DNA of 59,287 bases, the filler included. It is 4 parts of 4 records of this genome, joined end to end, with 100 filler letters (N's around TTAATTAATTAA, not from the genome) between each part and the next. Parts side by side here need not be neighbours in the genome. Positions count along the whole stretch, not along the records: positions 21,056 to 43,922 come from SRR2962707_4285; 3 more parts are not named here. The stretch is one strand, 5' to 3'. Positions 23,234 through 41,482 of the stretch are shown here, one piece after another. Position numbers and translations under genes: made by a program. How positions within the stretch are numbered: the first letter of the stretch is position 1; the number at the start of each line of letters is the position of its first letter. Under the pieces are notes generated by a model. That model was not told the DNA's origin and searched no databases. It was given only the letters and a program-made list of their open reading frames with translations.

Positions 23234-24065
23234 CGTCCTGAAATATCAGCGCCCCGGCGCGCCAAGGAACTCCTCTGGCAAAGGCGCAATCCAGATCAGC
23301 GATGCCTCAATCACCTTCGGGCGCGGGGCATCGGCCTATCATGCGGTGGAAACCACGTCGCTGCGCATCCTGCCGGGCGAATTCGTCTGCATTCTTGGCC
23401 CGTCGGGCTGTGGCAAATCCACCTTGCTGAACGCCATCGCGGGATATGTGAAACCTACCACCGGCTCTGTGGAAGTGGACGGTGTAACTGTTGAAAAACC
23501 GGGCCCGGACCGGGGTATGGTGTTCCAGCAATATTCGCTGCTGCCATGGAAAACCGTCTATGAAAACGTCGCCTTCGGCCCACGCATGGCGGGTGCCAGC
23601 CGGACCGAGGCCGGGTCAATCGCCAACACCTTTCTTGGCATGGTAGGGCTAAAGAAATTTGGCAGCCGATATCCGGCAGAGCTGTCTGGGGGTATGCAGC
23701 AGCGTGTCGGCATCGCCCGTGCGCTGGCAAATTATCCGTCGGTTCTGCTGATGGACGAACCCTTTGGCGCATTGGACGCGCAGACCCGGCTCATGATGCA
23801 GGAAAGCCTGCTCGAGATCTGGGCCAAGTTCGGCACCACGGTGGTCTTTGTCACCCATGACGTGGACGAGGCGGTGTTTCTGGCCGATCGCGTGCTGATC
23901 ATGTCCGCCGCGCCGGGCCGCATCATCGAGGATCTGCGCATTGACCTTCCCCGCCCACGCACGTCCGAGTCAGCCGCCTTGCCGGAATATATCGCGGCCC
24001 GGCAGCACTGCATGGCGACGATCCGTTCCGAAAGCCGCAAAGCCTTTGAGGAGCAAAACAAATGA
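23226..24065 (+). CDS. ABC ATP-binding protein (NrtD/SsuB/TauB-like)
   Basis: GPSGCGKST, LSGGMQQR, MDEPFGALD and VTHD. Confidence 0.93.
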   Translation: MLDVLKYQRPGAPRNSSGKGAIQISDASITFGRGASAYHAVETTSLRILPGEFVCILGPSGCGKSTLLNAIAGYVKPTTGSVEVDGVTVEKPGPDRGMVFQQYSLLPWKTVYENVAFGPRMAGASRTEAGSIANTFLGMVGLKKFGSRYPAELSGGMQQRVGIARALANYPSVLLMDEPFGALDAQTRLMMQESLLEIWAKFGTTVVFVTHDVDEAVFLADRVLIMSAAPGRIIEDLRIDLPRPRTSESAALPEYIAARQHCMATIRSESRKAFEEQNK

Positions 24066-24670
24066 AACCGCTTACCTATGTCTACGTTCTTGCCTGTGCA
24101 TTTGGCCTGTCCTGTGGTCCCGCCCTTGCCCAGGTGCAGGGTGTGATGCTGGACGCCCCCGTGCCGCTCCCTGCCTTCACGCTCAGCGATCAGGCGGGAG
24201 AGGTCTTTTCATCAGATGATCTGGCTGGACACTGGACGCTGATAATGTTCGGTTACACTTCCTGCCCGGATGTCTGCCCCTTCACCTTGGGTAACCTCGA
24301 GGCCGCGATTGCCGAAACCGCGGTGCGGGTGCGTCCCGACAATGTTCCCCGCGTGGTCTTTGTTTCGGTCGACCCAGAGCGTGACGCCGAGGCGGTCACG
24401 GATTACGCGATGTTCTTTCACCCCGATTTTCGCGGCGTGACAGGCGCGCGCGACCAGATCGATGCATTGATTGAGGCAACAGACAGCTTCTACCGGCTGC
24501 TGCCGTCTGATGACTCTGGCTACTACGAAGTGCAGCACTCCTCGGCTGTGTCGGTTATCGGTCCGGGTGGTCAACTGCGCGCCAAACTGCAACCACCCTT
24601 TGACCCCGGCACAACGGCCGAATTCCTCGCGCGGCTGCAAATCGCGTACCGCAGGGATTTAGGGCAATGA
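24062..24670 (+). CDS. SCO1/SenC family copper chaperone
   Basis: FGYTSCPDVCP, VSVDPERD and conserved His in VQHS; signal peptide. Confidence 0.92.
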   Translation: MKPLTYVYVLACAFGLSCGPALAQVQGVMLDAPVPLPAFTLSDQAGEVFSSDDLAGHWTLIMFGYTSCPDVCPFTLGNLEAAIAETAVRVRPDNVPRVVFVSVDPERDAEAVTDYAMFFHPDFRGVTGARDQIDALIEATDSFYRLLPSDDSGYYEVQHSSAVSVIGPGGQLRAKLQPPFDPGTTAEFLARLQIAYRRDLGQ

Positions 24671-25098
24671 TGCGGGTCCTAACCGCCGTCATGATCGTCT
24701 TGCCCGCACTGACCCAAGCCGACGGTATCGTGGCTGAGAACGCCTATATCCCCGTGGCGCCACCCAAGGTCACCGTCAGTGCCGCCTACATGACTCTGCA
24801 AAACCAAGGAGATGCAGTTCGCAGCCTGATTGGCGTGGCTGCCCAAGGGTATGGCATGGCCCATCTGCATCAAACCCGGGAGGTCGACGGAACTACAAGC
24901 ATGTCGCCAGTCCATCAGCTGGATATACCGTCCCACGCAGCAGTTGAGCTGGCCCCCGGCGGTCTGCACGTCATGATGATGATGCCAAAGGCCCCGGTCC
25001 TCGCGGGATCTGTTGTCACGCTGACCTTGACCTTTGCGGATGGTGAAATGATGGCAGTTCCCGTCACAGTCATTGAGGGCCGGGATGCAGGCTCGTAA
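24667..25098 (+). CDS. copper chaperone PCu(A)C
   Basis: AAYMTL, HLH...M and LAPGGLHVMM. Confidence 0.9.
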   Translation: MMRVLTAVMIVLPALTQADGIVAENAYIPVAPPKVTVSAAYMTLQNQGDAVRSLIGVAAQGYGMAHLHQTREVDGTTSMSPVHQLDIPSHAAVELAPGGLHVMMMMPKAPVLAGSVVTLTLTFADGEMMAVPVTVIEGRDAGS

Positions 25099-25672
25099 AG
25101 TCTGGGCCGCCATTGCCTTGATGCTGGCCTGGCCCGCGACCGCCGAGTCCCTGTTGGACGAAGACTTCCCAGCCCATGAACGCTGTGCGCTCTGCCACGG
25201 GTTGTTCGGGGATTCTGGGCGCGACAGATTTCCAAAGCTGGCAGGCCAGCGTCCCGCATATATCGAGGCGCAGATACGCGCATTTTTAAGCGGGCAACGC
25301 AGCAATGACCGTGGTCAGATGGCAGCCGTAGTGACGGAATTGGAGGCGGGTGACATCGCCGAGGTGGTCGACTGGTTTTCGTCCCAGCCGCACCCAGCAC
25401 CGATTCCATCGGATGATATCGAAAAAGGCTACATTGCCTATCTTTCCGCCGGTTGCGAGGAATGCCACGATGAACGCGCGTCGAGATCGCAAAATATTCC
25501 TTATCTGGCTTCACAACACCCTGCATATCTGGGCAAACAGATGCGTGACATGCGCGATGGGCGCCGCCTTGGCACCGGCATCGAAGCGATGCAGGCGCAG
25601 CTGAGCCGTCTTAGCGACGCTGATCTGGACGCGATAGCGGCCTATCTCGCCGCGCAGGACAGGACCCCATGA
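25085..25672 (+). CDS. diheme cytochrome c4/c553-like protein
   Basis: Two CXXCH motifs (CALCH, CEECH), PKLAGQ and PYLASQH; signal peptide. Confidence 0.9.
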   Translation: MQARKVWAAIALMLAWPATAESLLDEDFPAHERCALCHGLFGDSGRDRFPKLAGQRPAYIEAQIRAFLSGQRSNDRGQMAAVVTELEAGDIAEVVDWFSSQPHPAPIPSDDIEKGYIAYLSAGCEECHDERASRSQNIPYLASQHPAYLGKQMRDMRDGRRLGTGIEAMQAQLSRLSDADLDAIAAYLAAQDRTP

Positions 25673-26382
25673 CCGAAGAACACGATTCAAACAGCGCGAT
25701 CTATCTTTCCGAATATCTGCTCGAAATTAACGAAGGCGCGGGTTTCCTTGCGTCTCTGGCCCCGGACGTCCGTGCCCGGGTGCTCCATAATGGCATGCGC
25801 ACGACCATCCACAAGGGGGATGGGCTGTTCTTTCAGGGTGATCCGCACACGGGCATCTGGATCGTCGAATCCGGTCGCATCCGCACCTTTTACGCTGGCC
25901 CATCGGGGCGTGAAATCACGCTTGCCTACTGGAGCGCGGGACATTTTGTCGGCGGCCCAGAGATTTTCGGGCGTGGACGCCATGTCTGGTCCGCCGACGC
26001 GCTAGAGGAAACCGAATTGCTATTCCTGTCCGGCAGTTCGCTGCGCACGCTTGTACGCGAAGTGCCGGACGTCGCCATTTCGATCATCGAAGGTCTGATC
26101 GCCAAAGCGAAATGTTATTCTGCGCTGCTCCAGATGCTGGGCACGCGGTCCGTCTCTGAACGATTGCGCCAGCTTTTGGTGATCCTGGCCGACACCCATG
26201 GGCGACACGAGGACGGGGATATCATCATTGATCGATCCATCACCTATGAACAGGTCGCCACAATGGTCGGTGCCACCCGCCAATGGGTCACACAATCGCT
26301 CGACAAGCTTCAGAGCGAGGGCGTTCTGAACGTGTCGCGCAAAGAAATCATCATACATCACCTCGAAAGACTGGAAGAATGA
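25669..26382 (+). CDS. Crp/Fnr family transcriptional regulator
   Basis: LFFQGD, SGREITL and C-terminal HTH ITYEQVATMVGATRQWVT; lacks the FNR cysteine cluster. Confidence 0.9.
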   Translation: MTEEHDSNSAIYLSEYLLEINEGAGFLASLAPDVRARVLHNGMRTTIHKGDGLFFQGDPHTGIWIVESGRIRTFYAGPSGREITLAYWSAGHFVGGPEIFGRGRHVWSADALEETELLFLSGSSLRTLVREVPDVAISIIEGLIAKAKCYSALLQMLGTRSVSERLRQLLVILADTHGRHEDGDIIIDRSITYEQVATMVGATRQWVTQSLDKLQSEGVLNVSRKEIIIHHLERLEE

Positions 26383-27389
26383 CTTCTGGCGATTTCGCCG
26401 CCCGGTCTCGCGATACCTGGGGACGCGTCTATTTGTTGATTCCTGGCGTTGCGGTCGCTGCGACGGTCAGTCTGGCCGCGACCGGCATCTCCCTGCGTTA
26501 CGGCGCGCCCGCAATGCTGTTTGCGCTGCTGCTTGGCATGGCGCTGTCCTTTCTGTCTTCCGATCCGCGGGTCCGGCCCGGGCTGGAGTTCGCGGGCGGT
26601 ACCATGTTGAAATCGGGGGTCGCGCTCCTGGGGATTGCCGTTTCGATCGACACGTTCCAGATGCTGGGTGTTGCAGCGGTTCTGAGCGTACTGGCTCTTT
26701 TGGTGCTGTCGATGAGTTTTGGGATATGGCTGGGCCGTCGCGTTGGGTGGAACATCGAATCCGCCGTCGTTGCTGCTGGTGCCGTTTCAATCTGCGGCGC
26801 TTCGGCCGCGCTGGCGTTGACGGCGCTGGTCCAGGACAGGGTGCCGCGCAGCCATACGATGGCGGTGATCATGATCGCCACAGGTTTGTCCACCGTGGCC
26901 ATGGTATTCTATCCTGTGGTCCTGCATGCGCTTGACCTGTCGCCGTGGCAGACTGGTTTCGTCATCGGCGCGAGCATTCATGATGTGGCACAGGTTATCG
27001 GTGCTGGTTTTTCCGTATCGGACGCTGTCGGGGAAACGGCGACACTGACCAAAATGATGCGCGTTGCCCTTTTGCCGGTGGTGTTGCTCGCCGTGTCGGT
27101 CACCTTGGGGCGTGCGTCGCCGGGGGCGAGGATCGGGTTGCCCTGGTTCGTGTTGGCTTTCATCACGCTGTTTGTCATTGCAAGTGTTCTGCGGGTTCCC
27201 GAAGCTCTGCGTGCCGGGGTGTCGGATCTGTCGCGTGCGCTGTTCCTTGTGGCGATTTCGGGCATTGGCCTGCTCAGCAACGTGCAAGAGCTTCGGACTG
27301 TAGGTGCGCGCACGTTTTACGTGTTGTTTGCGACGACGGCACTGTTATTTGGATCTGCCGTCCTGCTGGCATTGCTGTTTCAGAACTAG
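26379..27389 (+). CDS. YeiH/UPF0324 putative sulfate exporter family membrane protein
   Basis: AVSICGASAALA, GASIHDVAQV, TKMMRVALL and LPWFV. Confidence 0.9.
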   Translation: MTSGDFAARSRDTWGRVYLLIPGVAVAATVSLAATGISLRYGAPAMLFALLLGMALSFLSSDPRVRPGLEFAGGTMLKSGVALLGIAVSIDTFQMLGVAAVLSVLALLVLSMSFGIWLGRRVGWNIESAVVAAGAVSICGASAALALTALVQDRVPRSHTMAVIMIATGLSTVAMVFYPVVLHALDLSPWQTGFVIGASIHDVAQVIGAGFSVSDAVGETATLTKMMRVALLPVVLLAVSVTLGRASPGARIGLPWFVLAFITLFVIASVLRVPEALRAGVSDLSRALFLVAISGIGLLSNVQELRTVGARTFYVLFATTALLFGSAVLLALLFQN

Positions 27390-27552: not shown

Positions 27553-27603
27553 CGCAATGTTCTAACCCTCAAGTCATTCGAATGAATTTGCGCGGCGAGA
27601 GTG

Positions 27604-28317
27604 ATGACGGATCAGAAAAATTGGAAACAAGTACGCGACTGGATCGTGCAGAGCATCGCGTCGCGTGAACTGCGCGAAGGTGACCGCGTGCCGCCCGAAC
27701 AGGACATTGCGGCGATCTGCGGCGTCGGGCGTCATTCGGTCCGCCGCGCCACTACGGCATTGGCGGTCGATGGCGTTCTAAGCATTGAACAGGGGCGCGG
27801 CACATTTGTCAGGGCCCGTCCCGGGATACTCTACCGGATTGGGCGGCGCACGCGGTACCGCGAAAACCTGCAACGTGCCGGCGTGGTCCCGGGCAGCGAA
27901 GCCCTGGGAACCGATTTGATCGACGCGGACGCGTCCATCGCACAGGCGCTGGGTCTGCCGATTGACACGCCGGTCCACCGCATTCTGCGTCGTGGACTGG
28001 CCGATGGTGTCCCGATCAACCTTACACGCAGCTATCATTCCGCTGCCCGTTTCCCCGATCTGGACGCACGGCGAACCGCCGGTGACAGCGTGTCGGCAAT
28101 CTACCGTGACTATGGCATCGCCGATTATCGCCGCCGCGAGACCGAGCTTTTTGCGCGTCTGCCGACGCGATCCGAAGCACGGCTTTTGGATCAGCGGCCC
28201 GAACAGCCTGTCATGGTTGTCTGTAAGACGGATGTCGAACCTGACGGCACGGTTCTGGGTTATGGCGAGGCGCTTTGGGGTGCTGGCCGGGTTCGTTTTC
28301 TACTGGAGGATCAATGA
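27604..28317 (+). CDS. phnF: GntR/UTRA phosphonate regulator PhnF
   Basis: GDRVPPEQDIA...VGRHSVRRA...QGRGTFV wHTH followed by YRIGRRTRY; first gene of the phn operon. Confidence 0.88.
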   Translation: MTDQKNWKQVRDWIVQSIASRELREGDRVPPEQDIAAICGVGRHSVRRATTALAVDGVLSIEQGRGTFVRARPGILYRIGRRTRYRENLQRAGVVPGSEALGTDLIDADASIAQALGLPIDTPVHRILRRGLADGVPINLTRSYHSAARFPDLDARRTAGDSVSAIYRDYGIADYRRRETELFARLPTRSEARLLDQRPEQPVMVVCKTDVEPDGTVLGYGEALWGAGRVRFLLEDQ

Positions 28318-28763
28318 TGCGCGACACAGCAGTACCCGGTGCGGCCCACCCCCAACATGCGGATATCCTTTCTGTGCTGGCCCGCGCAGCGCCGCACGCA
28401 ATCAAGGCTGAGGCCGAAGCGGTTCTTCCTGCACTGGGCGAGGTCGAAGTGATCCAGTCGCGCACAGGTCTGGTCATGCTGCCGATGCGTGACACGGTGC
28501 AGGGGGGTGATTTCCATTTGGGCGAGGTGCTGGTGGCCGAGGCGCATGTCCGCACCGCCGAAACAGAGGGTTACGGCATGACCGTCGGGCGGGATCTGGA
28601 ACAGGCAATGGCAATGGCGCTGCTGGATGCGGCCTGGTCTGGCGGTGTCGCGCGCGACCTTGTGGAGGGGTTCGTTGCTCGCATGGCCGCAGCGCAGGGC
28701 CGCGAAGATCACGACACCCTGTGCAACATCAATGCGACGCGAGTTGAGATGGAGACATTCTGA
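28314..28763 (+). CDS. phnG: C-P lyase subunit PhnG
   Basis: TGLVML...FHLGEVLV...ALLDA...ATRVEMETF. Confidence 0.85.
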   Translation: MMRDTAVPGAAHPQHADILSVLARAAPHAIKAEAEAVLPALGEVEVIQSRTGLVMLPMRDTVQGGDFHLGEVLVAEAHVRTAETEGYGMTVGRDLEQAMAMALLDAAWSGGVARDLVEGFVARMAAAQGREDHDTLCNINATRVEMETF

Positions 28764-29305
28764 TGCAGGACGCCCCCATCCCTGATGCAGAAGAACAGCG
28801 CGACAATGCCAGTTTTGCTGCCATCTTGCAGGCTTTTGCCCGTCCCGGCACGGTGCAGACGCTGCCAGCACACGGGCCAGAGCCTGTGGCCTTGGCCCTG
28901 ATCGACCGTGAATGTCGTATTTTCTGCGACGACCCTGCGTTGCAAGACCTTTTGCGCGCCACCGGGGCCATGCCGGTTCCGCCCGAGCTTGCTGATCACG
29001 CATTTCTGGGCCTGAAAACTGCGGCGGATCTGGCCGTTTTCGACCGCCTCAGCCCCGGTAGCGCGCTTTATCCCGACAGCGGCGCAACGGTGATCGTGGA
29101 TGCGCGTATTGGCACCGGCGCGCTTCTTCGGCTGACCGGTCCGGGTATCCGGGACCAGACCGAGCTCCGCCTTGGGGGGCTGCACCCGCAAATCTGGGCT
29201 AGGCGCGCGCATCTGTGCCGCTATCCGCTGGGGACTGAGATGATATTGATCGACGGCGACCGGCTAATTGCGCTTCCGCGCTCGACCACAGTGGAGGAGG
29301 TCTGA
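28763..29305 (+). CDS. phnH: C-P lyase subunit PhnH
   Basis: AFARPG, ALIDRE, GSALYPDSGAT, LTGPGI, YPLG and ALPRST. Confidence 0.88.
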   Translation: MQDAPIPDAEEQRDNASFAAILQAFARPGTVQTLPAHGPEPVALALIDRECRIFCDDPALQDLLRATGAMPVPPELADHAFLGLKTAADLAVFDRLSPGSALYPDSGATVIVDARIGTGALLRLTGPGIRDQTELRLGGLHPQIWARRAHLCRYPLGTEMILIDGDRLIALPRSTTVEEV

Positions 29306-30385
29306 ATGGCTTATGTTGCTACACGCGGCGGCGAAAACGCCATCGAACAGGCAGAGCGGCTCTACCGGGCGCAGATGGGCCGCATCGACGCGGGCCGGGT
29401 GGCCGAGATCGGGGCGGCTTTGCCCGCACTGATCGACCGGGTGATGGGCGAGGCATCGCTATATGCGCCCGACCTCGCGGCGCTGGCTCTGGCCCAGTCG
29501 GGCGGCGATCTTTACGAGGCGCTGTTGCTGCTGCGGGCATGGCGCACGACGCAGCCGCGGCTTCAGGTGGCCGAGCCTGTCGCGCCTGAACAAACTCTCA
29601 CGCATCGTCGGATCTCTGCCGCGTTCAAGGATATACCTGGCGGGCAGATCCTGGGCCCGACGCTTGACTATGCGCACCGACTGCTGGCGACCGGGGTGCT
29701 CACCGGTCAGCCGTTTGATCCGGCATTGGTCGATCCCGCAGCGACGCCCGCACCCGCGACGCATCCGTTGCTGGCCGACTGGCAGCGGGCGCAGGGCCTT
29801 GTCACGCAGAAAATGTCCGCGTCTGTGGATAAGGATCAGATCCCCGATCTGACCCGCGAACCGTTGCTGTTTCCCGCCAAACGGGCGCACACACTGCAAA
29901 GCCTGGCGCGGGCCGATACGGGCGGTGTCCTCGCGCTCGGGTATGCAGCAATGCGCGGTTACGGACAGGCCCACCCGACCGTGAATGAGCTGCGCCTCTC
30001 CGAGGCCGAGGTTCGTGTCACCCATCCCTGCGGCACGGTGTTCAGCGCGGGACGCGTGCGTACGTCACAGGCCGAAGTGGTCACGACCAAAGGCAAGGGA
30101 GAGTTGCAGTTGGGGTTTTGCGCCACCCTTGGCTGGAACGAGGTCAAGGTGATCGCGGGCGCGACGCTAGACCTCAACAGCCCCGGCGCACCCCGGAACA
30201 GCCCGGTGAACGAAGAATTTTTTCTCTACCACACTGAGCCGGTCGAAAGCTCTGGCTTTTGCATCCATTTCAAACTTCCCCATTACGTCACGTTCCAGTC
30301 GTCGCTGGACAATCTCCGCGCCGCCAAGGGGCCGGTCCAGCCGCAGAGCAACCTGCAAACCGCATCGCAGAAAGAGTCAGTATGA
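29306..30385 (+). CDS. phnI: C-P lyase subunit PhnI
   Basis: MAYVATRGGE, DRVMGEASLY, RRISAAFKDIPGGQILGPT, MRGYG..HP and HFKLPHYVTFQ. Confidence 0.93.
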   Translation: MAYVATRGGENAIEQAERLYRAQMGRIDAGRVAEIGAALPALIDRVMGEASLYAPDLAALALAQSGGDLYEALLLLRAWRTTQPRLQVAEPVAPEQTLTHRRISAAFKDIPGGQILGPTLDYAHRLLATGVLTGQPFDPALVDPAATPAPATHPLLADWQRAQGLVTQKMSASVDKDQIPDLTREPLLFPAKRAHTLQSLARADTGGVLALGYAAMRGYGQAHPTVNELRLSEAEVRVTHPCGTVFSAGRVRTSQAEVVTTKGKGELQLGFCATLGWNEVKVIAGATLDLNSPGAPRNSPVNEEFFLYHTEPVESSGFCIHFKLPHYVTFQSSLDNLRAAKGPVQPQSNLQTASQKESV

Positions 30386-31296
30386 GCCTTTCAACCCTAA
30401 CACGGGAGTGGCAGCCGTTTTCCTATGGTTTCCTGGATGCCAGCGCCAAGCGCGAACTGCGCCGCCGGTTGATCAAGGCCGTCGCCGTACCCGGTTGTCA
30501 GGTGCCATATGCCAGCCGCGAGGTGCCTATCGCGCGGGGCTGGGGCACCGGGGGCTTGCAGGTGTCGCTGACGCTGCTGAACCCGGCGCAGGTGGTTAAG
30601 GTTATTGACCAGGGCGCGGATGACAGCGTCAATGCGGCGTCGATCCGGCGCTTTCTGCAGCGTGTGTCGGGCGCATTCGTCACCAGCGACACGACGCAAG
30701 CTAGCCTGATCCAATCCCGCCATCGCATCCCCGAGGAACGCCTGCGCGCCGACCAGATCCTTGTGCTGCAAGTGCCCAATCCGGAACCCCTGCGCCCGGT
30801 GGAACCAAACATGTCAGTCGCGCGCCAGATGCATGCGGATGCGACCTATGGCCGACTTTGGCTGACGTTGTATGAGCAGATGGTCCGGTCGGGTCGGATC
30901 ATGCAGGGGGCAAGCTATCCGGCGATGGTCAATGGGCGGCACGTCATGACACCGTCGCCGATCCCGCGCTGGGACCTGCCCAAACTGCATATGGCCGACC
31001 ACCTGACGATCCTGTCGGCAGGGCGCGAAAAACGGATCTATGCGGTACCGCCCCACACACGGGTCGAACCGCTGGTCTTTGACGACATTCCCTACCGTGT
31101 CGAAGATCACGCAGACCTGACCTGCCATCGCTCAGGCCTGTCCGGGTTCTTTATGAACGAGCTGCCGCAGGCCGACGGCGGCGCCTTGCACGAGGTGTCC
31201 GATAGTCATCTGGGCGTCAAGGCGATCCGCCTTGCCGAAGGCGAGGACGCCCGGATCGGCGAGACCTGGTACAGAAATGGAAAGATGACGCAATGA
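30382..31296 (+). CDS. phnJ: PhnJ-family protein lacking the radical-SAM cysteine motif
   Basis: KAVAVPG.QVP, GWGTGG, KVIDQGADD, RHRIPE, QVPNPEPLR, PSPIP and AGREKRIYAVPP. Only two Cys in the whole protein. Confidence 0.92.
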   Translation: MSLSTLTREWQPFSYGFLDASAKRELRRRLIKAVAVPGCQVPYASREVPIARGWGTGGLQVSLTLLNPAQVVKVIDQGADDSVNAASIRRFLQRVSGAFVTSDTTQASLIQSRHRIPEERLRADQILVLQVPNPEPLRPVEPNMSVARQMHADATYGRLWLTLYEQMVRSGRIMQGASYPAMVNGRHVMTPSPIPRWDLPKLHMADHLTILSAGREKRIYAVPPHTRVEPLVFDDIPYRVEDHADLTCHRSGLSGFFMNELPQADGGALHEVSDSHLGVKAIRLAEGEDARIGETWYRNGKMTQ

Positions 31297-32093
31297 CAGC
31301 CCTTGCTTTGGACGCCCCCCGGCTTGTCACTGCGCAGCCGCTCTTGCAGATGCACGACGTCTGCAAACGCTATGGCGATGTCACTGCGCTCGATACGGTC
31401 AATGCGACCGTCTATCCTGGCGAAGTGCTGGGCATCGTCGGCGAAAGTGGATCGGGGAAATCGACCCTTCTGCGCATGATGAACCTCGAGGAACAGCCGG
31501 ATGCGGGCCGTTATGATCTGAATCTGCCCGAAACACCTGGCAACCTGTTCGATCTGGACCGTTACGACCGGCAGATGCTGCGTGCCCGCCGCATCGGGAT
31601 CGTCTACCAGAACCCGCATTTGGGGTTGCTGATGAAAAACTCCTCCTCCGGCAACGTTGCCGAACGGCTGCTTATCGCCGGCGAACGCCGCTTTGCCGTG
31701 CTGCGTGAAAAGGGGCGGGTGGCGCTGGAGGCTTCGGAATTCCCGCTCGATCGGATAGATGCGCCGCCGATTGACCTGTCGGGGGGGATGCAGCAACGGG
31801 TCCAGCTGGCCAAGGCGATCGCGCTGGAACCCGCTGTGCTGCTGCTGGACGAGCCGACCACAGGTCTGGATGTCAGCGTTCAGGCGTTGGTGCTGGACAC
31901 GCTGAAACGGCTGCAAAGGGACCGGCGCATCACCATGGTGATCGTCAGCCATGACCTTGGCGTGATCCGCGTCATGGCCGACCGAGTCATGGTCATGCGG
32001 CGCGGTCAGGTGGTCGAGGTCGGGCTTGCCGACCAGATATTTCAGGACCCGCAGCACGCCTACACCCAGTCGCTTGTCCATGCAAAACTGTAA
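31293..32093 (+). CDS. phnK: C-P lyase ABC-type ATPase PhnK
   Basis: GEVLGIVGESGSGKST, GNVAERL, SGGMQQR, DEPTTGLDVSVQA and DPQHAYTQ. Confidence 0.92.
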   Translation: MTALALDAPRLVTAQPLLQMHDVCKRYGDVTALDTVNATVYPGEVLGIVGESGSGKSTLLRMMNLEEQPDAGRYDLNLPETPGNLFDLDRYDRQMLRARRIGIVYQNPHLGLLMKNSSSGNVAERLLIAGERRFAVLREKGRVALEASEFPLDRIDAPPIDLSGGMQQRVQLAKAIALEPAVLLLDEPTTGLDVSVQALVLDTLKRLQRDRRITMVIVSHDLGVIRVMADRVMVMRRGQVVEVGLADQIFQDPQHAYTQSLVHAKL

Positions 32094-32103
32094 AGGACAC
32101 GAA

Positions 32104-32808
32104 ATGCCAATCCTGACTGTCGAAGCGCTTTCCAAGACCTTTCGCTTGCATCACCTGAATGAGGTGCTGCCCGCCTTTGATCGGCTTTCGTTCACCTTGT
32201 CACAAGGGGAATTTCTGCTGCTCGCTGGTCCGAACGGCGCGGGGAAATCGACCCTTTTGCGCACGCTCTACCGGTCTTACCGCCCCGTCGCCGGGCACAT
32301 CTGGTACAACAGCACCGAGGGCCGGGTCGACCTTGCCCGCGCCGCCGATGTGGATATCGCGCACTTGCGACGCCACGAGATCGGATTTGTCACCCAGTTC
32401 CTGACCGCTCGCCCGCGCGTGGCCGCCGAAGATATCGTGGCCGAACCGTTGCGCGCCGCCGGCCATTCAGCAGACCTGGCGCTGGACGAGGCCCGGCACT
32501 GGCTGGCGGCCTTTGGTGTGCGTGAGGCGCTCTGGCGCGCCTATCCCAGCACTTTTTCCGGGGGCGAGCAGCAGAAGGTCAATCTGGCCCGCGCGCTGAT
32601 CCGCCCGCCAAGGATTTTGCTGTTGGATGAACCAACTGCGTCTCTGGATGCCAGCGCCCGGGCGGCACTGGTCCAGAGGCTGGCAGAGCTGAAAACCCAA
32701 GGCGTGGCGATGATCGGGGTGTTCCACCATCCCGGTGATGTGGCATGCTTGATCGACCGTACTATAGACCTAATACCAAGCGAGGTAGCCCCCCATGTGG
32801 CTGAGTGA
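32104..32808 (+). CDS. phnL: C-P lyase ABC-type ATPase PhnL
   Basis: SKTFRLH, GAGKST, IGFVTQFL, PSTFSGGEQQ, LLDEPTASLD and GVFH. Confidence 0.92.
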   Translation: MPILTVEALSKTFRLHHLNEVLPAFDRLSFTLSQGEFLLLAGPNGAGKSTLLRTLYRSYRPVAGHIWYNSTEGRVDLARAADVDIAHLRRHEIGFVTQFLTARPRVAAEDIVAEPLRAAGHSADLALDEARHWLAAFGVREALWRAYPSTFSGGEQQKVNLARALIRPPRILLLDEPTASLDASARAALVQRLAELKTQGVAMIGVFHHPGDVACLIDRTIDLIPSEVAPHVAE

Positions 32809-33976
32809 TTTCCGGATTGTACTGAAGGATTGCGTGCTGCCCCATGGCGCGCTACGCATCGAAAACGGCCTGATCGCCGAAGTGTCTGAAACCCCGGTGG
32901 ACGACGCAGATCTGGAAGGCAACGGCCTGCTGCTGTTGCCCGGGTTCATTGACATGCACGGCGACATGATCGAACGCGAGGTCGAGCCGCGCCCGAATGT
33001 GCGCATGCCGATGGAACTGGGTCTGCGCGATCTGGACGGCAGGCTGAAGGTCGCAGGCGTGACCACGGCCTATGCCGCCGTCAGCTTCAATCCGAAATCG
33101 ACTTACGGGCATATGCGCAGCTATGATCATTCCACGGCGATGCTGCGCGAGCTGAAGGCGATGCAGCAGGACCTGCAAGTTGATCATCGCGTCCATGCTC
33201 GGTTCGAGATCGGCCAACCCGATGCCCTCGGCGTGGTCGAGGAGTTGATCGGCGAAGGTACAGTCGATCTCGTCTCGTTGACCGATCACACACCGGGGCA
33301 GGGGCAGTACCGCGATCTTGAGCGTTTGACCCGACGCACTCAGGCGGAACAGGGGCTGAGCCGGGAGGACGCCGAACTCGCCATAAAGGACCGTATCGAG
33401 AAGAAGCAGCGGCATGCTGGCGATGTGGCGGCCACGTTGCGGGCGATTTCGGCGGTCTGTTCCGCGCATGGTATTGCACTGGCAAGCCATGACGACGATA
33501 CGCCGGAAAAGGTTGCGCTCATGCAAGATCTGGGCGCAACCATCAGCGAATTCCCCGTGACCGAAGAGGCCGCCCGCGCGGCCCGCCACCATGGCCTGAT
33601 GACTGTGATGGGCGCGCCGAATGCCCTGCGGGGCCTAAGCTATTCCGGCAACCTGTCGGCGCGCGACGCGCATGGGCTGGGCCTGCTGGACATTCTGGCT
33701 GCGGATTACCACCCCTCGGCGATCCTTCCGGCCCTGCTGATCCTTGGGCGGGCCGATCCAGATGGCCTGGCTGGCGTCGTGCGTATGGCGAGTGCAAATC
33801 CGGCCTACGCTCTTGGCCTGCATGACCGGGGCGAGATTACCGTTGGTCGACGCGCCGATCTGGTGATCGCCGATGATGACGGTATCGGCCATGTCTGCGC
33901 GACCATTTGCGCCGGGCGGATGATCTATTCCAACGGCAACCTGTCGTTTCCAGGCGACACAAAGGACCCTGCATGA
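32795..33976 (+). CDS. phnM: alpha-D-ribose 1-methylphosphonate 5-triphosphate diphosphatase PhnM
   Basis: PGFIDMHGD, DHTPGQGQY, ASHDD, SEFP, MGAPN and DILAADY. Confidence 0.92.
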   Translation: MWLSDFRIVLKDCVLPHGALRIENGLIAEVSETPVDDADLEGNGLLLLPGFIDMHGDMIEREVEPRPNVRMPMELGLRDLDGRLKVAGVTTAYAAVSFNPKSTYGHMRSYDHSTAMLRELKAMQQDLQVDHRVHARFEIGQPDALGVVEELIGEGTVDLVSLTDHTPGQGQYRDLERLTRRTQAEQGLSREDAELAIKDRIEKKQRHAGDVAATLRAISAVCSAHGIALASHDDDTPEKVALMQDLGATISEFPVTEEAARAARHHGLMTVMGAPNALRGLSYSGNLSARDAHGLGLLDILAADYHPSAILPALLILGRADPDGLAGVVRMASANPAYALGLHDRGEITVGRRADLVIADDDGIGHVCATICAGRMIYSNGNLSFPGDTKDPA

Positions 33977-34245: not shown

Positions 34246-35022
34246 TCAATGTCGACGCTGGGCCCATTTGACGGTGGTGTTCCAGTGCAGCTCAACCGCC
34301 CCTTGGGCATGCTCTGCATAGAGCGCGCCCAGATCTGCTATGACCTGCCCCAGCCCGATCCGGCGCACGATGGTCGCAAGGGTCGAGCGCGTAAGATATA
34401 GGTCGATAAGTTCGCGGCACTCCACTTCGTTTGACCAGCGGTAGGTGCGGGATTTGGCACTGTGAAAGCAGGTTTCGGCGGCCAGTTCGCGGACCGACGG
34501 CTCCTTCGTCTTTTCGCGGCGGGCGTAGTCGTAGATGTTGACAGAGTGTTCAGCGATGTACCGATCAAAGGCCGCGATCAGCGGCATGGCCTCACGTCGG
34601 TTGCGCAGCAGGGCCAGCACGCCGCCCGGGGCCAGAACGCGCTGCGCCTCTGCAAAGAAGATGGCGCGGTCGAACCAGTGAAAGGCCGTACAGGCCACGA
34701 CCAGACCGGCGCTGGCGTCTGGCAGCGGCACCGCCTCGGCGCAGGCGTCGATGACCTGCACGCCGGTATGGGTCGCAAAGCGGCGCGACAGGACGCGGCG
34801 CATATCGCGCCCCGGCTCGGCCGCGATGACCAGCCAGTCGTCGGGTACGGCCCGGCGCAGCCCAGACGTGGAATTGCCCGGACCCGCGCCGAGATCCAGT
34901 GCAATTCTGGCGGACGAACTGCAGGCCGCGACCAGATCTTCGAAAGCGGCGTCGGGATACCCCGGGCGATAGAGGTTGTAGGCTTCGGCCAACCCCTCGA
35001 AACGCTCGGCATTCTCACGCAT
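34246..35022 (-). CDS. class I SAM-dependent methyltransferase
   Basis: YNLYRPGYP, LDLGAGPG, AFHWFD and RVLAPGG. Confidence 0.88.
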   Translation of the reverse strand: MRENAERFEGLAEAYNLYRPGYPDAAFEDLVAACSSSARIALDLGAGPGNSTSGLRRAVPDDWLVIAAEPGRDMRRVLSRRFATHTGVQVIDACAEAVPLPDASAGLVVACTAFHWFDRAIFFAEAQRVLAPGGVLALLRNRREAMPLIAAFDRYIAEHSVNIYDYARREKTKEPSVRELAAETCFHSAKSRTYRWSNEVECRELIDLYLTRSTLATIVRRIGLGQVIADLGALYAEHAQGAVELHWNTTVKWAQRRH

Positions 35023-35025
35023 GGC

Positions 35026-36240
35026 TCAGATCCAAAAATCCCGCGCCGCAAAGGCAGTGCGCCCTTGGCACAGGGTCAGGACAGGGGCGGGGGCGCTGTC
35101 TTGAGGCCAGTCCAGCAGGACAAGATCGGCGCGCTGTCCTGGTGCGATCCGACCCCGGTCGGTCAGCCCGCAGGCCTGCGCGGGGTTCTGCGAAACCAAT
35201 TGCCAGAGCTTGTGCAGTGGGGCGACCCTGTCGGCGTGCAGGCGTGCGATTGCCGCCAGCATCGCCGGATAAAAATAATCCGAGGCCAGGATATCGCACA
35301 GCCCGCGCGCCACCATGTCGCCCGCACCTGGGCTTCCGATGTGGCTGCCGCCGCGCACGACGTTCGGCGCGCCAAAGACGATCCAGTCGCCCGCATCGCG
35401 GGCCGCCTGCGCCACGCCTTGGTTCATCGGGAATTCGGAAATGCGTGCGCCCTTGTCGCGATAATAGGCGCGTGTGTGCGGCTGGCTGTCGTCATGGCTG
35501 AGCATCGGGGCAAACCGGGCGCGGCCTTGTGCCGCGACTTCGGCGATGGTGGCGCCGACATCGGGGCGACGCTCCCAGATCCCAGTGATCTTATGAATGA
35601 AATCATCGGTGCTCAGTCCCGACCGTTTGGCCCGGCTTTGCATCTTTTGCGCGAAAGCAGCGCCGTGCAGATCGGTGATCGGATAATCGGAATCCAGATC
35701 AAAGGGGCGGGTTTGCAACGGTACCGCCGGGTCAAGCAGTGCCATCGAGGTATGGTCGTTGAACGCCAATGCCGGCGTAAGGGGGGCCGCGAGTGCGCGT
35801 TCGATCAGCGGGCGCGCCTCAAAGCAGAACGTCTCCCACCGCAGTTGCAGGCGATTTTCGATCGTTAGCCGCCCAGCCATTGCCCCTAGAAGATCGACGA
35901 TTTGCGTCGCCATCTCGACTGAGCGCAAGCCTGGTTCCCAGCTAAGCGTCAGCGCATGATAGGCGGTTGCGATGCCGTTGCCAGCCAGTTGCCGGTCGGT
36001 TTCCAGCAGTGCCGTGTCGAGTGGAAAGAACACGCCGGGGCGCGGCATCAATTGGCGTTCGAACGCATCGCCGTGAATGTCCACCATCGCGGGCGCCAGC
36101 ATCAGGTCGGTCGCGTCGATGCACCGTGCGCCGTCGTCCGGGCCATCCAAACCAGTGATGTGGCCGTTTTCGATGCGCACCGACGCCTTTGCTATGCCAT
36201 CGGGTAGCAGGACATCCGCGCCTTTGAAAATAATCGCCAT
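35026..36240 (-). CDS. second PhnM-like amidohydrolase
   Basis: PAMVDIHGDAFERQLMPRPG, FNDH, SHDD, SEFP, GAPNVVRGGSH and DILASDY; ATG overlaps the upstream stop. Confidence 0.88.
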   Translation of the reverse strand: MAIIFKGADVLLPDGIAKASVRIENGHITGLDGPDDGARCIDATDLMLAPAMVDIHGDAFERQLMPRPGVFFPLDTALLETDRQLAGNGIATAYHALTLSWEPGLRSVEMATQIVDLLGAMAGRLTIENRLQLRWETFCFEARPLIERALAAPLTPALAFNDHTSMALLDPAVPLQTRPFDLDSDYPITDLHGAAFAQKMQSRAKRSGLSTDDFIHKITGIWERRPDVGATIAEVAAQGRARFAPMLSHDDSQPHTRAYYRDKGARISEFPMNQGVAQAARDAGDWIVFGAPNVVRGGSHIGSPGAGDMVARGLCDILASDYFYPAMLAAIARLHADRVAPLHKLWQLVSQNPAQACGLTDRGRIAPGQRADLVLLDWPQDSAPAPVLTLCQGRTAFAARDFWI

Positions 36241-36890
36241 CAGAGCCTCTCCATTGTCAGATGCCAATGCCAGGATCCGGGCGTGTCGTGTTCGCGATCC
36301 TGCATTTGCCAGACCTCGAACCCCACGAACAGCTCGAGCAGGTCCGGCGCGGAGCAGAAGTAATGCGGATGACGTTTGTCCCCGTCCGCGTCGAAAACCC
36401 ATGTGTTACGCGAAATCTCGCGCCCGTCGGCCCTGATACATTCCACCGGAACCCGGCGCGCAGACAGCATGGTGCCCAGAAAAGTACCACCCGGTTTCAG
36501 CGCCCGAGCGATTTCGGAGATGCTCTGGCGGACAACATCTTCGCCGCCGTGATAGATCACATTCCAGCTGAGCACATGGTCGAAGGCACCGTCGGCAAAG
36601 GGTAGGGTCGTCATCTGGGCCACGACCGTCTCAATGCTCAACCCGGCGTCGCTGGCCGAGGCATCCAGCTGCGCAAGCCCCTGTGGCGAGGCATCCATCG
36701 CCGTCACGGCGAACCCCTGCTGCGCCAGCGCCAGCGCGTGCCGTCCGACACCCGCACCCAGATCGAGGATGCGCGCGCCCGGCGCTAGCGTTGCGGCCCA
36801 GGCGGTCACATCCGGCTCGGGTGTCAGCCATTTCGCATCCGGTGCGGCCCAGTGCGTGTTCCAATGTTCGTGTGCCGTGTCTGTCTTCAT
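36240..36890 (-). CDS. class I SAM-dependent methyltransferase
   Basis: ILDLGAGVGRHA, LPFADGAFD, WNVIYHG and ALKPGG. Confidence 0.88.
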   Translation of the reverse strand: MKTDTAHEHWNTHWAAPDAKWLTPEPDVTAWAATLAPGARILDLGAGVGRHALALAQQGFAVTAMDASPQGLAQLDASASDAGLSIETVVAQMTTLPFADGAFDHVLSWNVIYHGGEDVVRQSISEIARALKPGGTFLGTMLSARRVPVECIRADGREISRNTWVFDADGDKRHPHYFCSAPDLLELFVGFEVWQMQDREHDTPGSWHWHLTMERL

Positions 36891-37726
36891 CTGTCCGTTC
36901 CGATGATCTTGCGGCGTAGCACTGCGCCCAATTGTTCTACGCTAATGACCACGACAGCAATCATCAAAATTACGGTCATCGCAGTAGGGTAATCGAACAG
37001 GTCAAAGCCGACCTTGAGTTCGATCCCGATCCCCCCCGCGCCCACGAGCCCCAGGATGGTGGAGGACCGGACAGCCTTTTCCAGACCGTAAAGCGCGGTC
37101 GAGATGAAGCCGGGCATCGCTGCGGGTATGATTGCTGTCGCCGCGATGTCCAGTTTGGTCGCCCCGGTTGCGGTCAGCGCCTCGGCGGGGCCGGGGTCAA
37201 TCGCCTCCATATCGTCGGCAAAGAAGCGGGCGCAAAACCCCAAAGTGTCCATCAGGATGGCGAGCATCCCGGCAAAGGGGCCAAGGCCGACCGCGACGAC
37301 AAAAAGCAGCGCCCATGCCAGATCCGGCACGGCGCGGATGAACCCCAGCGCAGTGCGCACGACCCAGTTTGTTCCACGCCCCGCCAGCACGCCGCGTGCG
37401 GCCAGCAACGCCAGCGGCAGCGACAGCACTACGCCAAGCGCCGCACCGGCGATGGACATCTGCAGGGTTTCTAGCATTTTCCACGACAACCGCCCCAGCG
37501 CATCGGTGGAGGGCGGCCAGGCGCGGTTCATGAAATCGGCCAACCGGGGGGCCGAGGCGCCGATCTTGTCCAGCGACCAGCCAGCCCCGTCCAGAGACCA
37601 GATTAGCAGCGCAGCGCCCAGAACATAGCCCATAAAGGCCAGCGCCGAGGGGCGTTCAAACCGTGCGGGAACCGCCTTGCGCCGCTCTGCGCGCGCGGCC
37701 CTGTCAGCTTGAGTGATATCAGACAT
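36887..37726 (-). CDS. PhnE/PtxC-like ABC permease (second system)
   Basis: IRAVPDLAWAL, GLGPFAG and VRSSTILGLVGAGGIG. Confidence 0.9.
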   Translation of the reverse strand: MSDITQADRAARAERRKAVPARFERPSALAFMGYVLGAALLIWSLDGAGWSLDKIGASAPRLADFMNRAWPPSTDALGRLSWKMLETLQMSIAGAALGVVLSLPLALLAARGVLAGRGTNWVVRTALGFIRAVPDLAWALLFVVAVGLGPFAGMLAILMDTLGFCARFFADDMEAIDPGPAEALTATGATKLDIAATAIIPAAMPGFISTALYGLEKAVRSSTILGLVGAGGIGIELKVGFDLFDYPTAMTVILMIAVVVISVEQLGAVLRRKIIGTDR

Positions 37727-38501
37727 AAAGCGCCCCCAGATCCTTGGCCGTGATGCCGGTTGTGGCGGCGTCCATTTCGATCCGACCATGGGCCAGACCC
37801 AGAACGCGGTCGCCATAGCGCACCGCATGTTCGACGTTGTGCGAGGTAAAGATAACCGTCACCCCTTCGGAGCGTACGAGGCGAAAGAACAGGTCCATCA
37901 CCTCTTCGCCCGCCACCGGGTCAAGCGAGGCGGTGGGTTCGTCTGCCACCAGAAATCGGGGCTGACCCACCAGTGCACGGGCGATCGCGACACGTTGGCT
38001 TTGACCACCCGACAGGCCGTCCGCGCGGCGCTTTGCTAGATGGGTAAGGCCGACCTTTTCCAGGGCGTCCATTGCTGCCGCCCGTGCCTGCGCGGGTGCA
38101 AAGACGTGGCTCCAGTAACGCGGCCCGGCGTGTCGCCCCAGCAGCCCGTGGATGACGTTCGACAATACGGAAAGGCGCGGGACAAGATTGTGTTTCTGCG
38201 CCACCAACCCGGTCCGGGCCCGCAGCTGCCGCTGATCGCGCCGTCCTAGCCCAAGCGTCTTTTGACCCAAAAGTTCGACGCTACCGGCATCGACCGGGAT
38301 CAACCCAAGACAGCAGCGCAGCAGCGTCGATTTGCCAGTGCCATTTGCCCCCACAAGCGCCACGCAGGCCCCTTGGGCAATCTCGAAATCGAGCGCAGAA
38401 AAGACAGGCGTGGCCTGACCAAACGATTTGGTCAGGCCACGTACGCTCAGATCCGCCGGAGCCGTCGTGGTTCGTGGTGCGATACCGTGGTCCAGCGCCA
38501 T
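37719..38501 (-). CDS. PhnC-like ABC ATPase (second system)
   Basis: GANGTGKST, HNLVPRLSVLSNV, LSGGQSQR and ADEPTASLDP. Confidence 0.9.
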   Translation of the reverse strand: MALDHGIAPRTTTAPADLSVRGLTKSFGQATPVFSALDFEIAQGACVALVGANGTGKSTLLRCCLGLIPVDAGSVELLGQKTLGLGRRDQRQLRARTGLVAQKHNLVPRLSVLSNVIHGLLGRHAGPRYWSHVFAPAQARAAAMDALEKVGLTHLAKRRADGLSGGQSQRVAIARALVGQPRFLVADEPTASLDPVAGEEVMDLFFRLVRSEGVTVIFTSHNVEHAVRYGDRVLGLAHGRIEMDAATTGITAKDLGALYV

Positions 38502-38505
38502 CGGT

Positions 38506-39378
38506 TTATTCGCCGATGAACTTGTCAAATTGCGGATAGCCCGCATTGGTATACATCGACCGCACGACGTCATAGGCCGCATCGTCAATCGCGACGAGAT
38601 CCATCCCACGATACTTCTCGTTCTCTTCGTGGGTCAGGATGGCGGAAATGATTGCATCCTTGTTATCGAGGATGGCAGTGCGGACGCGGTTGGCCGCCTC
38701 TTCGGGCACGTGGGCACCGACCATGATCATGTCGTTGGGCAGGTCGCCCGACCGCGCCAGAACCTTGAAGAATCCATAGGGCACCGAGGTATCTGTGGCG
38801 CGCGGGCCTTCCATCCAGCTGGTCGCATTGGTGCCGATCGCCGTGATATCACCGTTCTTGAGCGATTCGTGCGCGATGTTGCGCGAGGTATGTACGCGGT
38901 CGATGTCATTCACCGGATCTACGCCGTAATCTGCGACCAGTTGCATCGGGCAAAGCATGTTTGAGGTGGACCCGATATCACCAAAGGCGACTGTCTTGCC
39001 TTTAAGATCCGCCATTGCATTGATGCCGCTGTCGGCGCGCACGACGATGGCGCAATGGTAATCCGGTCGTCCCAGACCGATCAGCGGTTTCGCTTCGGTC
39101 AGCTTATTGATCACGATGTATTCGGCGGGTCCCGAGATAACGAAATCGACGGTCTTGCCGCGCAGCGCCTCTGCGGCGGCTGTGCGCGAACTGACCGGAT
39201 AAAAGTCGAATGTATCGCCGGTGGCGGACTCGAGCGCCTGCTTGAAGCCGCCCCATTCTGTCTGCAACCGTTCGAGCCCTTCGACATCCGTGACGGCAAG
39301 GTTCCAGTTTTCGGCAAAGGCACCAGTGGCGAGAAGCGCAGAGGTGGCAGAGATCGATAGGATGGTTTTCAGGGACAT
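38506..39378 (-). CDS. PhnD-like phosphate/phosphite/phosphonate-binding protein (divergent type)
   Basis: Signal peptide, AVTDVEGLERLQ, GPAEY, GSTS and DLPND. Confidence 0.85.
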   Translation of the reverse strand: MSLKTILSISATSALLATGAFAENWNLAVTDVEGLERLQTEWGGFKQALESATGDTFDFYPVSSRTAAAEALRGKTVDFVISGPAEYIVINKLTEAKPLIGLGRPDYHCAIVVRADSGINAMADLKGKTVAFGDIGSTSNMLCPMQLVADYGVDPVNDIDRVHTSRNIAHESLKNGDITAIGTNATSWMEGPRATDTSVPYGFFKVLARSGDLPNDMIMVGAHVPEEAANRVRTAILDNKDAIISAILTHEENEKYRGMDLVAIDDAAYDVVRSMYTNAGYPQFDKFIGE

Positions 39379-39457
39379 TGCAGAAGCCTTCCTGGCTTTG
39401 GTGAAAAGGTTCGAATGAATTTTTAAGCTGACGCTGTGACCTAAGGATTGCGGATGG

Positions 39458-40474: not shown

Positions 40475-40503
40475 CGGACCATCCAAACCAAGGGAAACTG
40501 CTT

Positions 40504-41424: not shown

Positions 41425-41482
41425 GACCACCTTTGCGCAGAGAGGGTTTCCCTCTCTGCCATCCATCCCATCGGGGGCGCGT

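Follow-up and report, generated by a model that had tools for sequence, protein, structure and literature searches.

The window analyzed here, a stretch of 59,287 nucleotides, carries at positions 27601-33976 an operon with the genes phnF, G, H, I, J, K, L and M in this order. Our subject is its phnJ gene (30382-31296, plus strand), a homologue of the catalytic subunit of carbon-phosphorus (C-P) lyase. The gene translates to an open frame of 304 residues with only two cysteines, C39 and C248 (codons at 30496 and 31123). It was assigned to the PhnJ family by the Pfam model PF06007 (381.5 bits against a cut-off of 25, spanning profile positions 3-268 of 275), by a phmmer search against the PDB, in which it matched the Escherichia coli PhnJ chains 7Z15_D and 4XB6_D (E 8e-80), and by alignments with the PhnJ of the E. 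coli phn operon (NC_000913.3). Its place, flanked by phnI and phnK in the order phnGHIJKLM, is kept in 63-64 of the 64 related loci with full flanks. No second PhnJ was found in the 59-kb window, the Cys-poor copy being the only one there.

In the published pathway, as described in PMC10574752 and PMC9947105, PhnI together with PhnG, H and L uses ATP to ribosylate the phosphonate, and PhnM removes diphosphate. PhnJ then splits the C-P bond by a glycyl-radical mechanism that depends on S-adenosylmethionine (SAM), yielding a 1,2-cyclic phosphate, from which PhnP and PhnN lead to phosphoribosyl pyrophosphate (PRPP). PMC9947105 and bioRxiv 10.1101/2024.07.22.604536 assign C241, C244 and C266 of E. 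coli PhnJ to the iron-sulfur (Fe-S) cluster and C272 to the thiyl radical.

When the window PhnJ is set against this scheme, the glycine of the glycyl radical is present (G38, equivalent to E. coli G32), and so are the ribosyl-ligand residues R113/H114 (R107/H108, within a retained RHRIPE motif) and Q130 (Q124). Of the three cluster cysteines only C248 is left. The PDB alignment places C248 and S251 (codon 31132) opposite C241 and C244, and the alignments that include E. coli PhnJ place V272 (31195) and G278 (31213) opposite C266 and the thiyl cysteine C272. Part of the assignment of C241, C244 and C266 to the cluster and of C272 to the thiyl radical reportedly goes back to Kamat et al. (2013). 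The window PhnI carries H-F-K-L-P-H, with the equivalents of His328 and His333. The gene is joined to both neighbors by ATGA overlaps, at 30382-30385 (phnI stop, phnJ start) and at 31293-31296 (phnJ stop, phnK start). These results bear out the original prediction, which had described a PhnJ without frameshift, coupled on both sides, with C248 kept, S251, V272 and G278 at the other positions, C39 as the sole additional cysteine, and the H108 equivalent and the PhnI histidines retained. Its further claim that the known mechanism is unusable also holds, since three of the four residues needed by that mechanism are missing. Judged from its residues, a PhnJ without C244, C266 and C272 cannot follow the published radical mechanism, and by the same alignments the window gene is an intact member of the PhnJ homology family that fails the defining catalytic features of a radical-SAM C-P lyase. 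A contig piece of 230 bases from one seawater metagenome is identical to positions 30829-31058, a section outside the cysteine codons.

The Cys-poor branch of PhnJ

A word-index protein search with the window PhnJ gave 7568 matches, and the pattern was read in the best 120. All 120 had C, S, V/L/I/A and G at the four positions; they were 78-92% identical to the window protein, save one of 356 amino acids at 66%, came mostly from Rhodobacterales and are labeled PhnJ by their sources. We also scanned genomic loci, taking one genome per species, and 80 of 80 related loci were Cys-poor. They span Rhodobacterales, Rhizobiales (Rhizobium, Neorhizobium, Mesorhizobium, Devosia, Pannonibacter, Bradyrhizobium and Microvirga), Trueperaceae and one metagenome-assembled genome of Chloroflexi. 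With 24 of 24 further copies from Deinococcota sharing it, the pattern is found across three phyla. At the C244 position these proteins have S or T, at that of C266 V, L or I, and at that of C272 G, A, V, L, M or K. Among the best 150 of the 759 matches to representatives of 50%-identity clusters, which were mostly fragments (115 had no C-terminal columns), more divergent Cys-poor forms were seen.

In a maximum-likelihood tree of 139 rows, a single branch with a support of 100 in the Shimodaira-Hasegawa-like approximate likelihood ratio test separated 83 Cys-poor from 56 canonical sequences, with the window PhnJ on the Cys-poor side; the tree is unrooted, and its canonical rows are biased towards copies from genomes that also gave Cys-poor ones, with E. 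coli and one further sequence added. The identical split was obtained from residues 1-240 alone with residue 39 dropped, so that it is independent of the cysteine trait itself. The branch is under purifying selection. The median ratio of non-synonymous to synonymous substitution (dN/dS), from 1948 pairs restricted to dS values of 0.15-1.2, was 0.15 for residues 1-240 and 0.28 from residue 241 to the end. Column conservation and this higher ratio mark residues 241-304 (31102-31293, plus strand) as a remodeled C-terminal domain, in which all 81 rows share E241, C248, M258, N259, E260, P262, G266, S273, D274 and K280.

Nothing but the missing cysteines could speak for a lesion private to this one genome, for pseudogene decay or for a sequencing error. 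The intact frame with its translational coupling on both sides, the recurrence of the pattern in 120/120 proteins and 80/80 loci from three phyla, and the purifying selection already refute this explanation, to which we assign practically no probability; chance or a sequencing artefact is impossible when all these relatives share the pattern. The original prediction had held that this was not simple decay, had proposed selection as a check and had named the retention of four cysteines in close homologues as what would speak against it; the coherent clade and its dN/dS values uphold it on each count. The sequences thus show that the window gene is intact and under selection and belongs to a separate Cys-poor subfamily of PhnJ. 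Because cysteines of the known radical mechanism are lost throughout, the branch as a whole must either use another mechanism or serve another purpose.

Of three residue-level candidates, two did not survive this comparison. The clade had been expected to share the PGCQ motif, and while it is coherent, it is not marked by PGCQ: C39 is found in 48 of 80 loci, a Rhodobacterales-like subclade, and the remaining loci have the canonical Y, which also discards C39 as a general radical partner. A metal site made up of H243, H249, H270 and H276 had been suggested too, and these residues are not conserved (H in 36% of rows at 249 and in 58% at 276; the commonest residue at 270 is F, in 44%). A role of C248 as essential nucleophile is weakened, since it is replaced by Asp in 6 Deinococcota genomes (L165, L167, L168, L174, L175 and L176), which leaves none of the four cysteines in their PhnJ, and by Ser in one metagenomic protein.

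A complete paralogous operon

The divergence is not confined to PhnJ. Upstream of it on the plus strand, as are all genes of the operon, lie a phnF-like regulator with Pfam GntR and UTRA domains (27601-28317; TIGR02325 154.4 bits, cut-off 156.8), which has a homologue near the operon in 59/64 loci, phnG (28275-28763; Pfam PhnG 80.4 bits, TIGR03293 88.5, cut-off 89), present in 64/64, phnH (28763-29305; Pfam PhnH 110 bits) and phnI (29306-30385; Pfam PhnI 347 bits, and alignments with E. coli and 10 other canonical PhnI). The start given for phnG is that of a mechanical open reading frame (ORF) call and the true one may be further downstream. After phnJ follow two ATPases of the ATP-binding cassette (ABC) type, phnK-like (31293-32093; Pfam ABC_tran, TIGR02323 217 bits, below the cut-off of 302.85; 64/64 loci) and phnL-like (32026-32808, from a mechanical TTG whose true counterpart is probably later; TIGR02324 243.7 bits, below 256.3; 64/64 loci), and phnM, of the ribosyl-phosphonate triphosphate diphosphatase family (32795-33976; NF011988 503.7 bits, cut-off 369; TIGR02318 416.9), in 63/64. 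Thus, among the NCBIfam equivalogs, PhnF, PhnG, PhnK and PhnL remain under their cut-offs and PhnM passes the specific model NF011988. No NCBIfam model matched the window PhnJ or PhnI, so that this collection is unable to separate the PhnJ subfamilies.

Within the subfamily phnG to phnM are kept in 63-64 of 64 loci, the best conserved subunits being PhnK (median identity 79%) and PhnJ (77%), with 45-59% for PhnH, PhnG and PhnM. As canonical reference we took ten operons from genomes that also carry the Cys-poor type, plus that of E. coli. Identity to these was about 32% for PhnH, 38-42% for PhnI, 45-50% for PhnJ, 41-47% for PhnK, 40-45% for PhnL and 35-38% for PhnM, and the window subunits were about equidistant from E. 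coli and from the canonical operons of the same genomes. Each subunit being only some 30-50% identical to its canonical counterpart, the operon is an old paralogous system, and the comparison shows the subfamily PhnJ to be the catalytic-subunit homologue of a complete ancient C-P lyase paralogue, phnGHIJKLM with its own regulator and transporter.

The likeness to E. coli PhnJ, the alpha-D-ribose 1-methylphosphonate 5-phosphate C-P lyase (EC 4.7.1.1), and its Phn(GHIJ)2K(L) complex (PDB 4XB6, 7Z15-7Z19) extends to several features: the window PhnJ belongs to the same Pfam family with 50% identity, the order G-H-I-J-K-L-M is the same, and so are the ribosyl-phosphate contacts R107, H108, Q124 and loop 47-50, Gly32, and PhnI His219, His328 and His333. 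In our alignments G32, G47-T50, R107, H108, Q124, Y158 and D229 of E. coli PhnJ were matched in 81/81 Cys-poor rows, and H219, H328 and H333 of PhnI (H223, H321 and H326 in the window) in 80/80. By the roles given in PMC9947105, every residue contacting the 5-phosphoribosyl ligand, the His (Zn) site shared by PhnI and PhnJ, and Gly32 are retained in the subfamily. What differs, besides S, V and G in place of C244, C266 and C272 and the remodeled C-terminal domain, is the PhnK-contact residue D226, which is V in the window PhnJ.

A comparison of cysteine columns between Cys-poor and canonical operons revealed changes in the partner subunits as well. The Cys-poor PhnI carries the motif G-F-C-x-H-x-K-L-P-H, with a gained cysteine (C319 in the window, codon 30260-30262) two residues ahead of the first histidine of the His site and at the position of E. 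coli V326; canonical proteins have V or L there. This cysteine occurs in 99 of 102 Cys-poor operons (80/80, 7/8 and 12/14 in the three sets read) and in 0/14 canonical ones. The three exceptions, all Thermus-type, have Ala (L149, L163 and L170), among them the PhnI of Thermus thermophilus HB8 plasmid pVV8 (L149, 7962-8993). Of the six loci with Asp at the C248 position five keep it; at the sixth, L165, the motif was not found in a 1.2-kb stretch. Conversely, C253 of E. coli PhnI, shared by all 11 canonical PhnI, is absent from the Cys-poor type and is A256 in the window. A further cysteine, C51 of PhnH, is specific to Cys-poor operons (75/79 rows vs 0/9 canonical) and is replaced by Thr in Trueperaceae and Chloroflexi. 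The i/i+2 spacing suggests that the gained PhnI cysteine faces the metal.

The two systems coexist in many genomes. When 50 whole genomes with a Cys-poor PhnJ were searched with PF06007, 43 held a further, much higher-scoring PhnJ, with the canonical four cysteines in 43/43. In the order that contains Psychromarinibacter, 243 of 401 genomes had a PhnJ match, and 13 of these had the Cys-poor type at 75% identity or more (one more match was partial); all 13 gave two matches, the second at 47-51% identity for six of them. Such same-genome canonical copies (e.g. L082-L124) resemble the window gene in family, hexapeptide acyltransferase and phnCDE, and differ in their identity of only about 47-50% and in lying on the opposite side of the fully supported branch. 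That one genome can hold two C-P-lyase-type operons differing in the range of their substrates has a precedent in Pseudomonas stutzeri WM88, whose htx operon is said to be a second C-P lyase operon, linked to growth on methylphosphonate (White and Metcalf, 2004). An extreme case is Microvirga sp. VF16 (G082), with ten PhnJ genes, eight of them four-Cys and two Cys-poor, nine of which lie on one 1.4-Mb plasmid, pMVF16-1 (L071, L072, L104, L125-L137).

In other groups the Cys-poor copy stands by itself. Among 121 Devosiaceae genomes, 52 had PhnJ and 18 fell in the Cys-poor score range of 340-390 bits; 7 of these 18, classed by score, were without a canonical match, and five carriers were checked by sequence, four of them sole-PhnJ genomes. 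Of 251 Deinococcota genomes sampled, 26 had PhnJ, and reading all 27 copies showed that 23 carried Cys-poor copies only and three were canonical. Since the Cys-poor copy is the sole PhnJ in 23/26 Deinococcota and 7/18 Devosiaceae, and lies in our window on an island in a host genus without PhnJ (see below), the operon is very probably a functional, autonomous system of some kind. PhnJ homologues were also found in 215 plasmid records, where matches of at least 59% identity include Haematobacter, Nitratireductor, Rhizobium, Sinorhizobium, Mesorhizobium and eight plasmids of T. thermophilus. The PhnJ of T. thermophilus HB8 pVV8 (WP_014677597.1), annotated as C-P lyase PhnJ, belongs to the same subfamily with about 59% identity; it shows C, T, V and M at the four positions within an operon phnCDE-GHIJKLM with a hexapeptide transferase. 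It differs from the window in the Ala at the gained PhnI cysteine, in a LacI-type regulator and in the YmdB-type metallophosphoesterase and sugar-transport genes nearby.

Possible chemistry of the Cys-poor complex

The best explanation overall, which we put at an even chance, is that of a selected Cys-poor subfamily working within a paralogous system by non-radical cyclisation. The complex would still make 5-phosphoribosyl-1-phosph(on)ate through PhnI, G, H and L and PhnM. The ribose 2'-OH would then attack, assisted by a metal, at the remodeled His/Cys site without radical-SAM chemistry, and the product of PhnJ would be the 1,2-cyclic phosphate, free to join the usual PhnP/PhnN route to PRPP. 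That this cyclisation takes place at the His site and expels a better leaving group than an alkyl carbanion we rate a little short of even; substrates would be limited to P-X bonds with a workable leaving group, such as activated phosphonates and P-O, P-N or P-S compounds. Non-radical cyclisation appears likeliest because the ribosyl-phosphate site and PhnM are kept, a PhnN or cyclic-phosphodiesterase-like enzyme is found in the stand-alone systems, and the His site gains a cysteine.

Several observations weigh against this explanation. The invariance of the Gly32 equivalent is unexpected if radical chemistry has been abandoned, although the motif around it may have a structural role. As the conserved His site may belong to the PhnI reaction, it is no proof that PhnJ is catalytic. 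Only its i/i+2 spacing places the PhnI cysteine close to the metal, and the Ala of the Thermus type (3/102), together with the Asp (6 Deinococcota) or Ser at the PhnJ C248 position, indicates that neither cysteine is indispensable. In the carriers that also have a canonical PhnJ (43/50 and 13/13 sampled), the Cys-poor system could depend on it. The mechanism itself is inferred purely from sequence comparison. A single-chain AlphaFold2 model of the window PhnJ, from a 37-row alignment, was too poor to use (mean predicted local distance difference test, pLDDT, 45.5). The PhnI-PhnJ complex predicted with zinc scored 0.44 against 0.00 for the best control. It thereby passed a mark that 58 of 80 solved complexes attain, as do 2 of 110 mismatched pairs; at scores of 0.60 or less stand only 7 of those 80 and both of the passing mismatches. 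Its runs agree in at least 60% of contacts with partner pLDDT of at least 75. We do not rely on this prediction, which offers weak support and may owe its pass to memory, a like complex having been solved.

The complex might still be a radical C-P lyase, for which the invariant glycine (81/81 rows) speaks. The radical would come from a cluster or cofactor elsewhere, for example one held by PhnJ C248, PhnI C319 and PhnH C51, or from another source; Gly38 and a different cysteine would carry it, and alkylphosphonates would give alkanes. The cysteines gained in PhnI and PhnH, C39 beside the glycine in 48/80 loci, the phosphonate-type transporters phnCDE accompanying the operon in 38-40/64 loci and the role of the Cys-poor copy as sole PhnJ in many Deinococcota all fit this possibility. 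However, a radical-SAM cluster needs three cysteines from one site, and since C51 (Thr in Trueperaceae and Chloroflexi), C248 (Asp in 6 Deinococcota), the PhnI cysteine (Ala in Thermus) and C39 (limited to a subclade) each vary, no set of three is conserved across the subfamily. An activase acting in trans had been suggested in the original prediction. A motif scan of the neighborhoods, based on crude ORF calls and not a profile search, found no ORF cluster with CxxxCxxC in at least 5 loci, which does not favor it. We regard a surviving radical mechanism as unlikely.

Equally improbable in our estimate is that PhnJ has become an inert scaffold, in a complex that performs only the ribosylation and diphosphate release of PhnI/PhnGHL and PhnM. 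Another enzyme would cleave the bond, or the system would salvage ribosyl-phosphates without cleavage. The loss of the catalytic cysteines agrees with this, the conserved His-site residues could serve PhnI chemistry (going by PMC9947105), and the neighbors vary with the lineage: a second amidohydrolase, a metallophosphoesterase, a PhyH dioxygenase, a PfkB kinase and a TIM barrel resembling sugar-phosphate isomerases. Yet PhnJ is second only to PhnK in conservation, well ahead of PhnH, PhnG and PhnM, its C-terminal domain retains ten invariant residues at a dN/dS of 0.28, and none of the accessory enzymes beside the operon is conserved across the subfamily.

Going beyond non-radical cyclisation as such, the Cys-poor PhnGHIJKLM might be a second, radical-SAM-independent and hence oxygen-indifferent way to cleave a bond to phosphorus in ribosyl-activated compounds, with catalysis at the PhnI/PhnJ His site and its added Cys ligand. 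We think this rather doubtful. If true, the His site, about 30 A from Gly32, would be a genuine catalytic center, and not all environmental phnJ counts would equal methane-forming capacity. How the Fe-S site and Gly32 of the canonical enzyme relate to its His/Zn site, some 30 A away (PMC9947105), is an open problem. The subfamily amounts to a natural experiment on it, the Fe-S site being deleted and the His site kept and modified.

The four PhnJ cysteines are described as conserved in bioRxiv 10.1101/2024.07.22.604536 and PMC12413358, and the publications consulted either do likewise or use phnJ as a uniform marker. Full-text literature searches returned no mention of PhnJ homologues lacking them; most subscription papers and supplementary alignments fall outside the scope of such searches and may already show such sequences. 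The Cys-poor branch is widespread and apparently unremarked. PhnJ is taken as the marker of C-P lyase and of the aerobic release of methane from methylphosphonate, and a large Cys-poor subfamily is annotated everywhere as PhnJ, even in the model organism T. thermophilus HB8. Either different chemistry takes place on the same scaffold, or the genes of the subfamily are mis-assigned. Gene-based estimates of methane from phosphonates should split the two PhnJ subfamilies; the Cys-poor share is small in Rhodobacterales (13/243 PhnJ-positive genomes) and dominant in Deinococcota. A Thermus complex, if thermostable and perhaps oxygen-tolerant, would be attractive for structural work.

Neighboring genes and genomic island

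Downstream of the operon, on the plus strand, the window carries the phosphonate-type ABC transporter genes phnC, phnD, phnE and phnE (39668-43281; Pfam, mechanical ORF starts). Homologues lie within 10 kb of the operon in the 38-40 of 64 loci already mentioned, with a median identity of 57-69%. A hexapeptide-repeat acyltransferase follows (43179-43886, plus strand; Pfam Hexapep), which is near 28/64 Cys-poor and 6/11 canonical loci; PMC12413358 describes such an 'act' gene as common in phn operons. In the Rhizobium group, a sugar-type binding protein, two permeases and a PfkB kinase are found directly upstream of phnG (19/64 loci vs 0/11 canonical), with a short-chain dehydrogenase/reductase, a PhyH dioxygenase and a LacI regulator downstream. 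This sugar transporter and PfkB set lies about 1-7 kb upstream of phnG at L022, L023, L033, L037 and 15 further loci. A sugar ABC transporter and PfkB in place of phnCDE hint at a sugar-linked substrate in this group. Xylose-isomerase-like TIM barrels recur near Cys-poor operons. Trueperaceae have a metallophosphoesterase gene between phnK and phnL, and the Thermus operon has one of the YmdB type close by.

PhnN homologues were found at 9/11 canonical loci vs 10/64 Cys-poor loci, most of the latter being without one. PhnN is beside the operon in 5/5 sequence-checked Devosia genomes without canonical PhnJ, and at the canonical locus in a Devosia genome with both types. This placement suggests that the Cys-poor system feeds the route from ribose-1,5-bisphosphate to PRPP. 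A scan with a Pho-box consensus gave 7 matches against 3.8 expected, a number reached by 8 of 100 shuffles, and no match in the regions upstream of phnF or phnC.

A set of minus-strand genes (34246-39552) converges on the end of phnM and is shared with few relatives (7-13 of 64 loci). It includes two SAM-methyltransferases (34246-35022 and 36240-36890; Pfam), with counterparts in only 10 and 7 of 64 loci, and between them a second PhnM-like amidohydrolase (35026-36402; Pfam), with homologues 53-64% identical at L002, L005, L016 and L038. The set ends with a second ABC transporter (36887-39552; Pfam BPD_transp_1, ABC_tran and Phosphonate-bd) made up of a permease, an ATPase and a PhnD-like binding protein, the last found in 13/64 loci. 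Upstream of the operon lie genes for SCO1/SenC, a PCuAC copper chaperone, a cytochrome c and a Crp-family regulator (24062-26382), and after them one for a YeiH-family membrane protein (26283-27389). At the related loci each of these genes is missing beside the operon (0/64).

We have compared the window with genomes of the host genus. The nearest genome matches positions 159-11865 with 99% identity. Beyond about 12 kb, the remainder of the window had no counterpart in five genomes of the genus, save short repeats and UvrB, and 0/19 genomes of the genus had any PhnJ. The UvrB-like gene (57236 to the end) is a second, divergent one, with 66-68% DNA identity to the uvrB of the genus. The GC content of the window is a mosaic of 0.44-0.65. 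Given this absence from the genus and the GC mosaic, the operon is part of a genomic island at least 47 kb long (12000-59287). It was probably acquired from an alphaproteobacterium, as its PhnJ is nearest to those of Maritimibacter and Psychromarinibacter. The island also carries a HipA-like kinase (12264-13523) and an HD-CE/HATPase protein (54202-56850). Finally, the repeats at 1-110, 4914-5000 and 13603-13847 occur in dozens of copies, at about 80-97% identity, across the nearest genomes (G001 and G006). They resemble intergenic elements of the repetitive extragenic palindromic (REP) type, and one set of them is found at the left border of the island.

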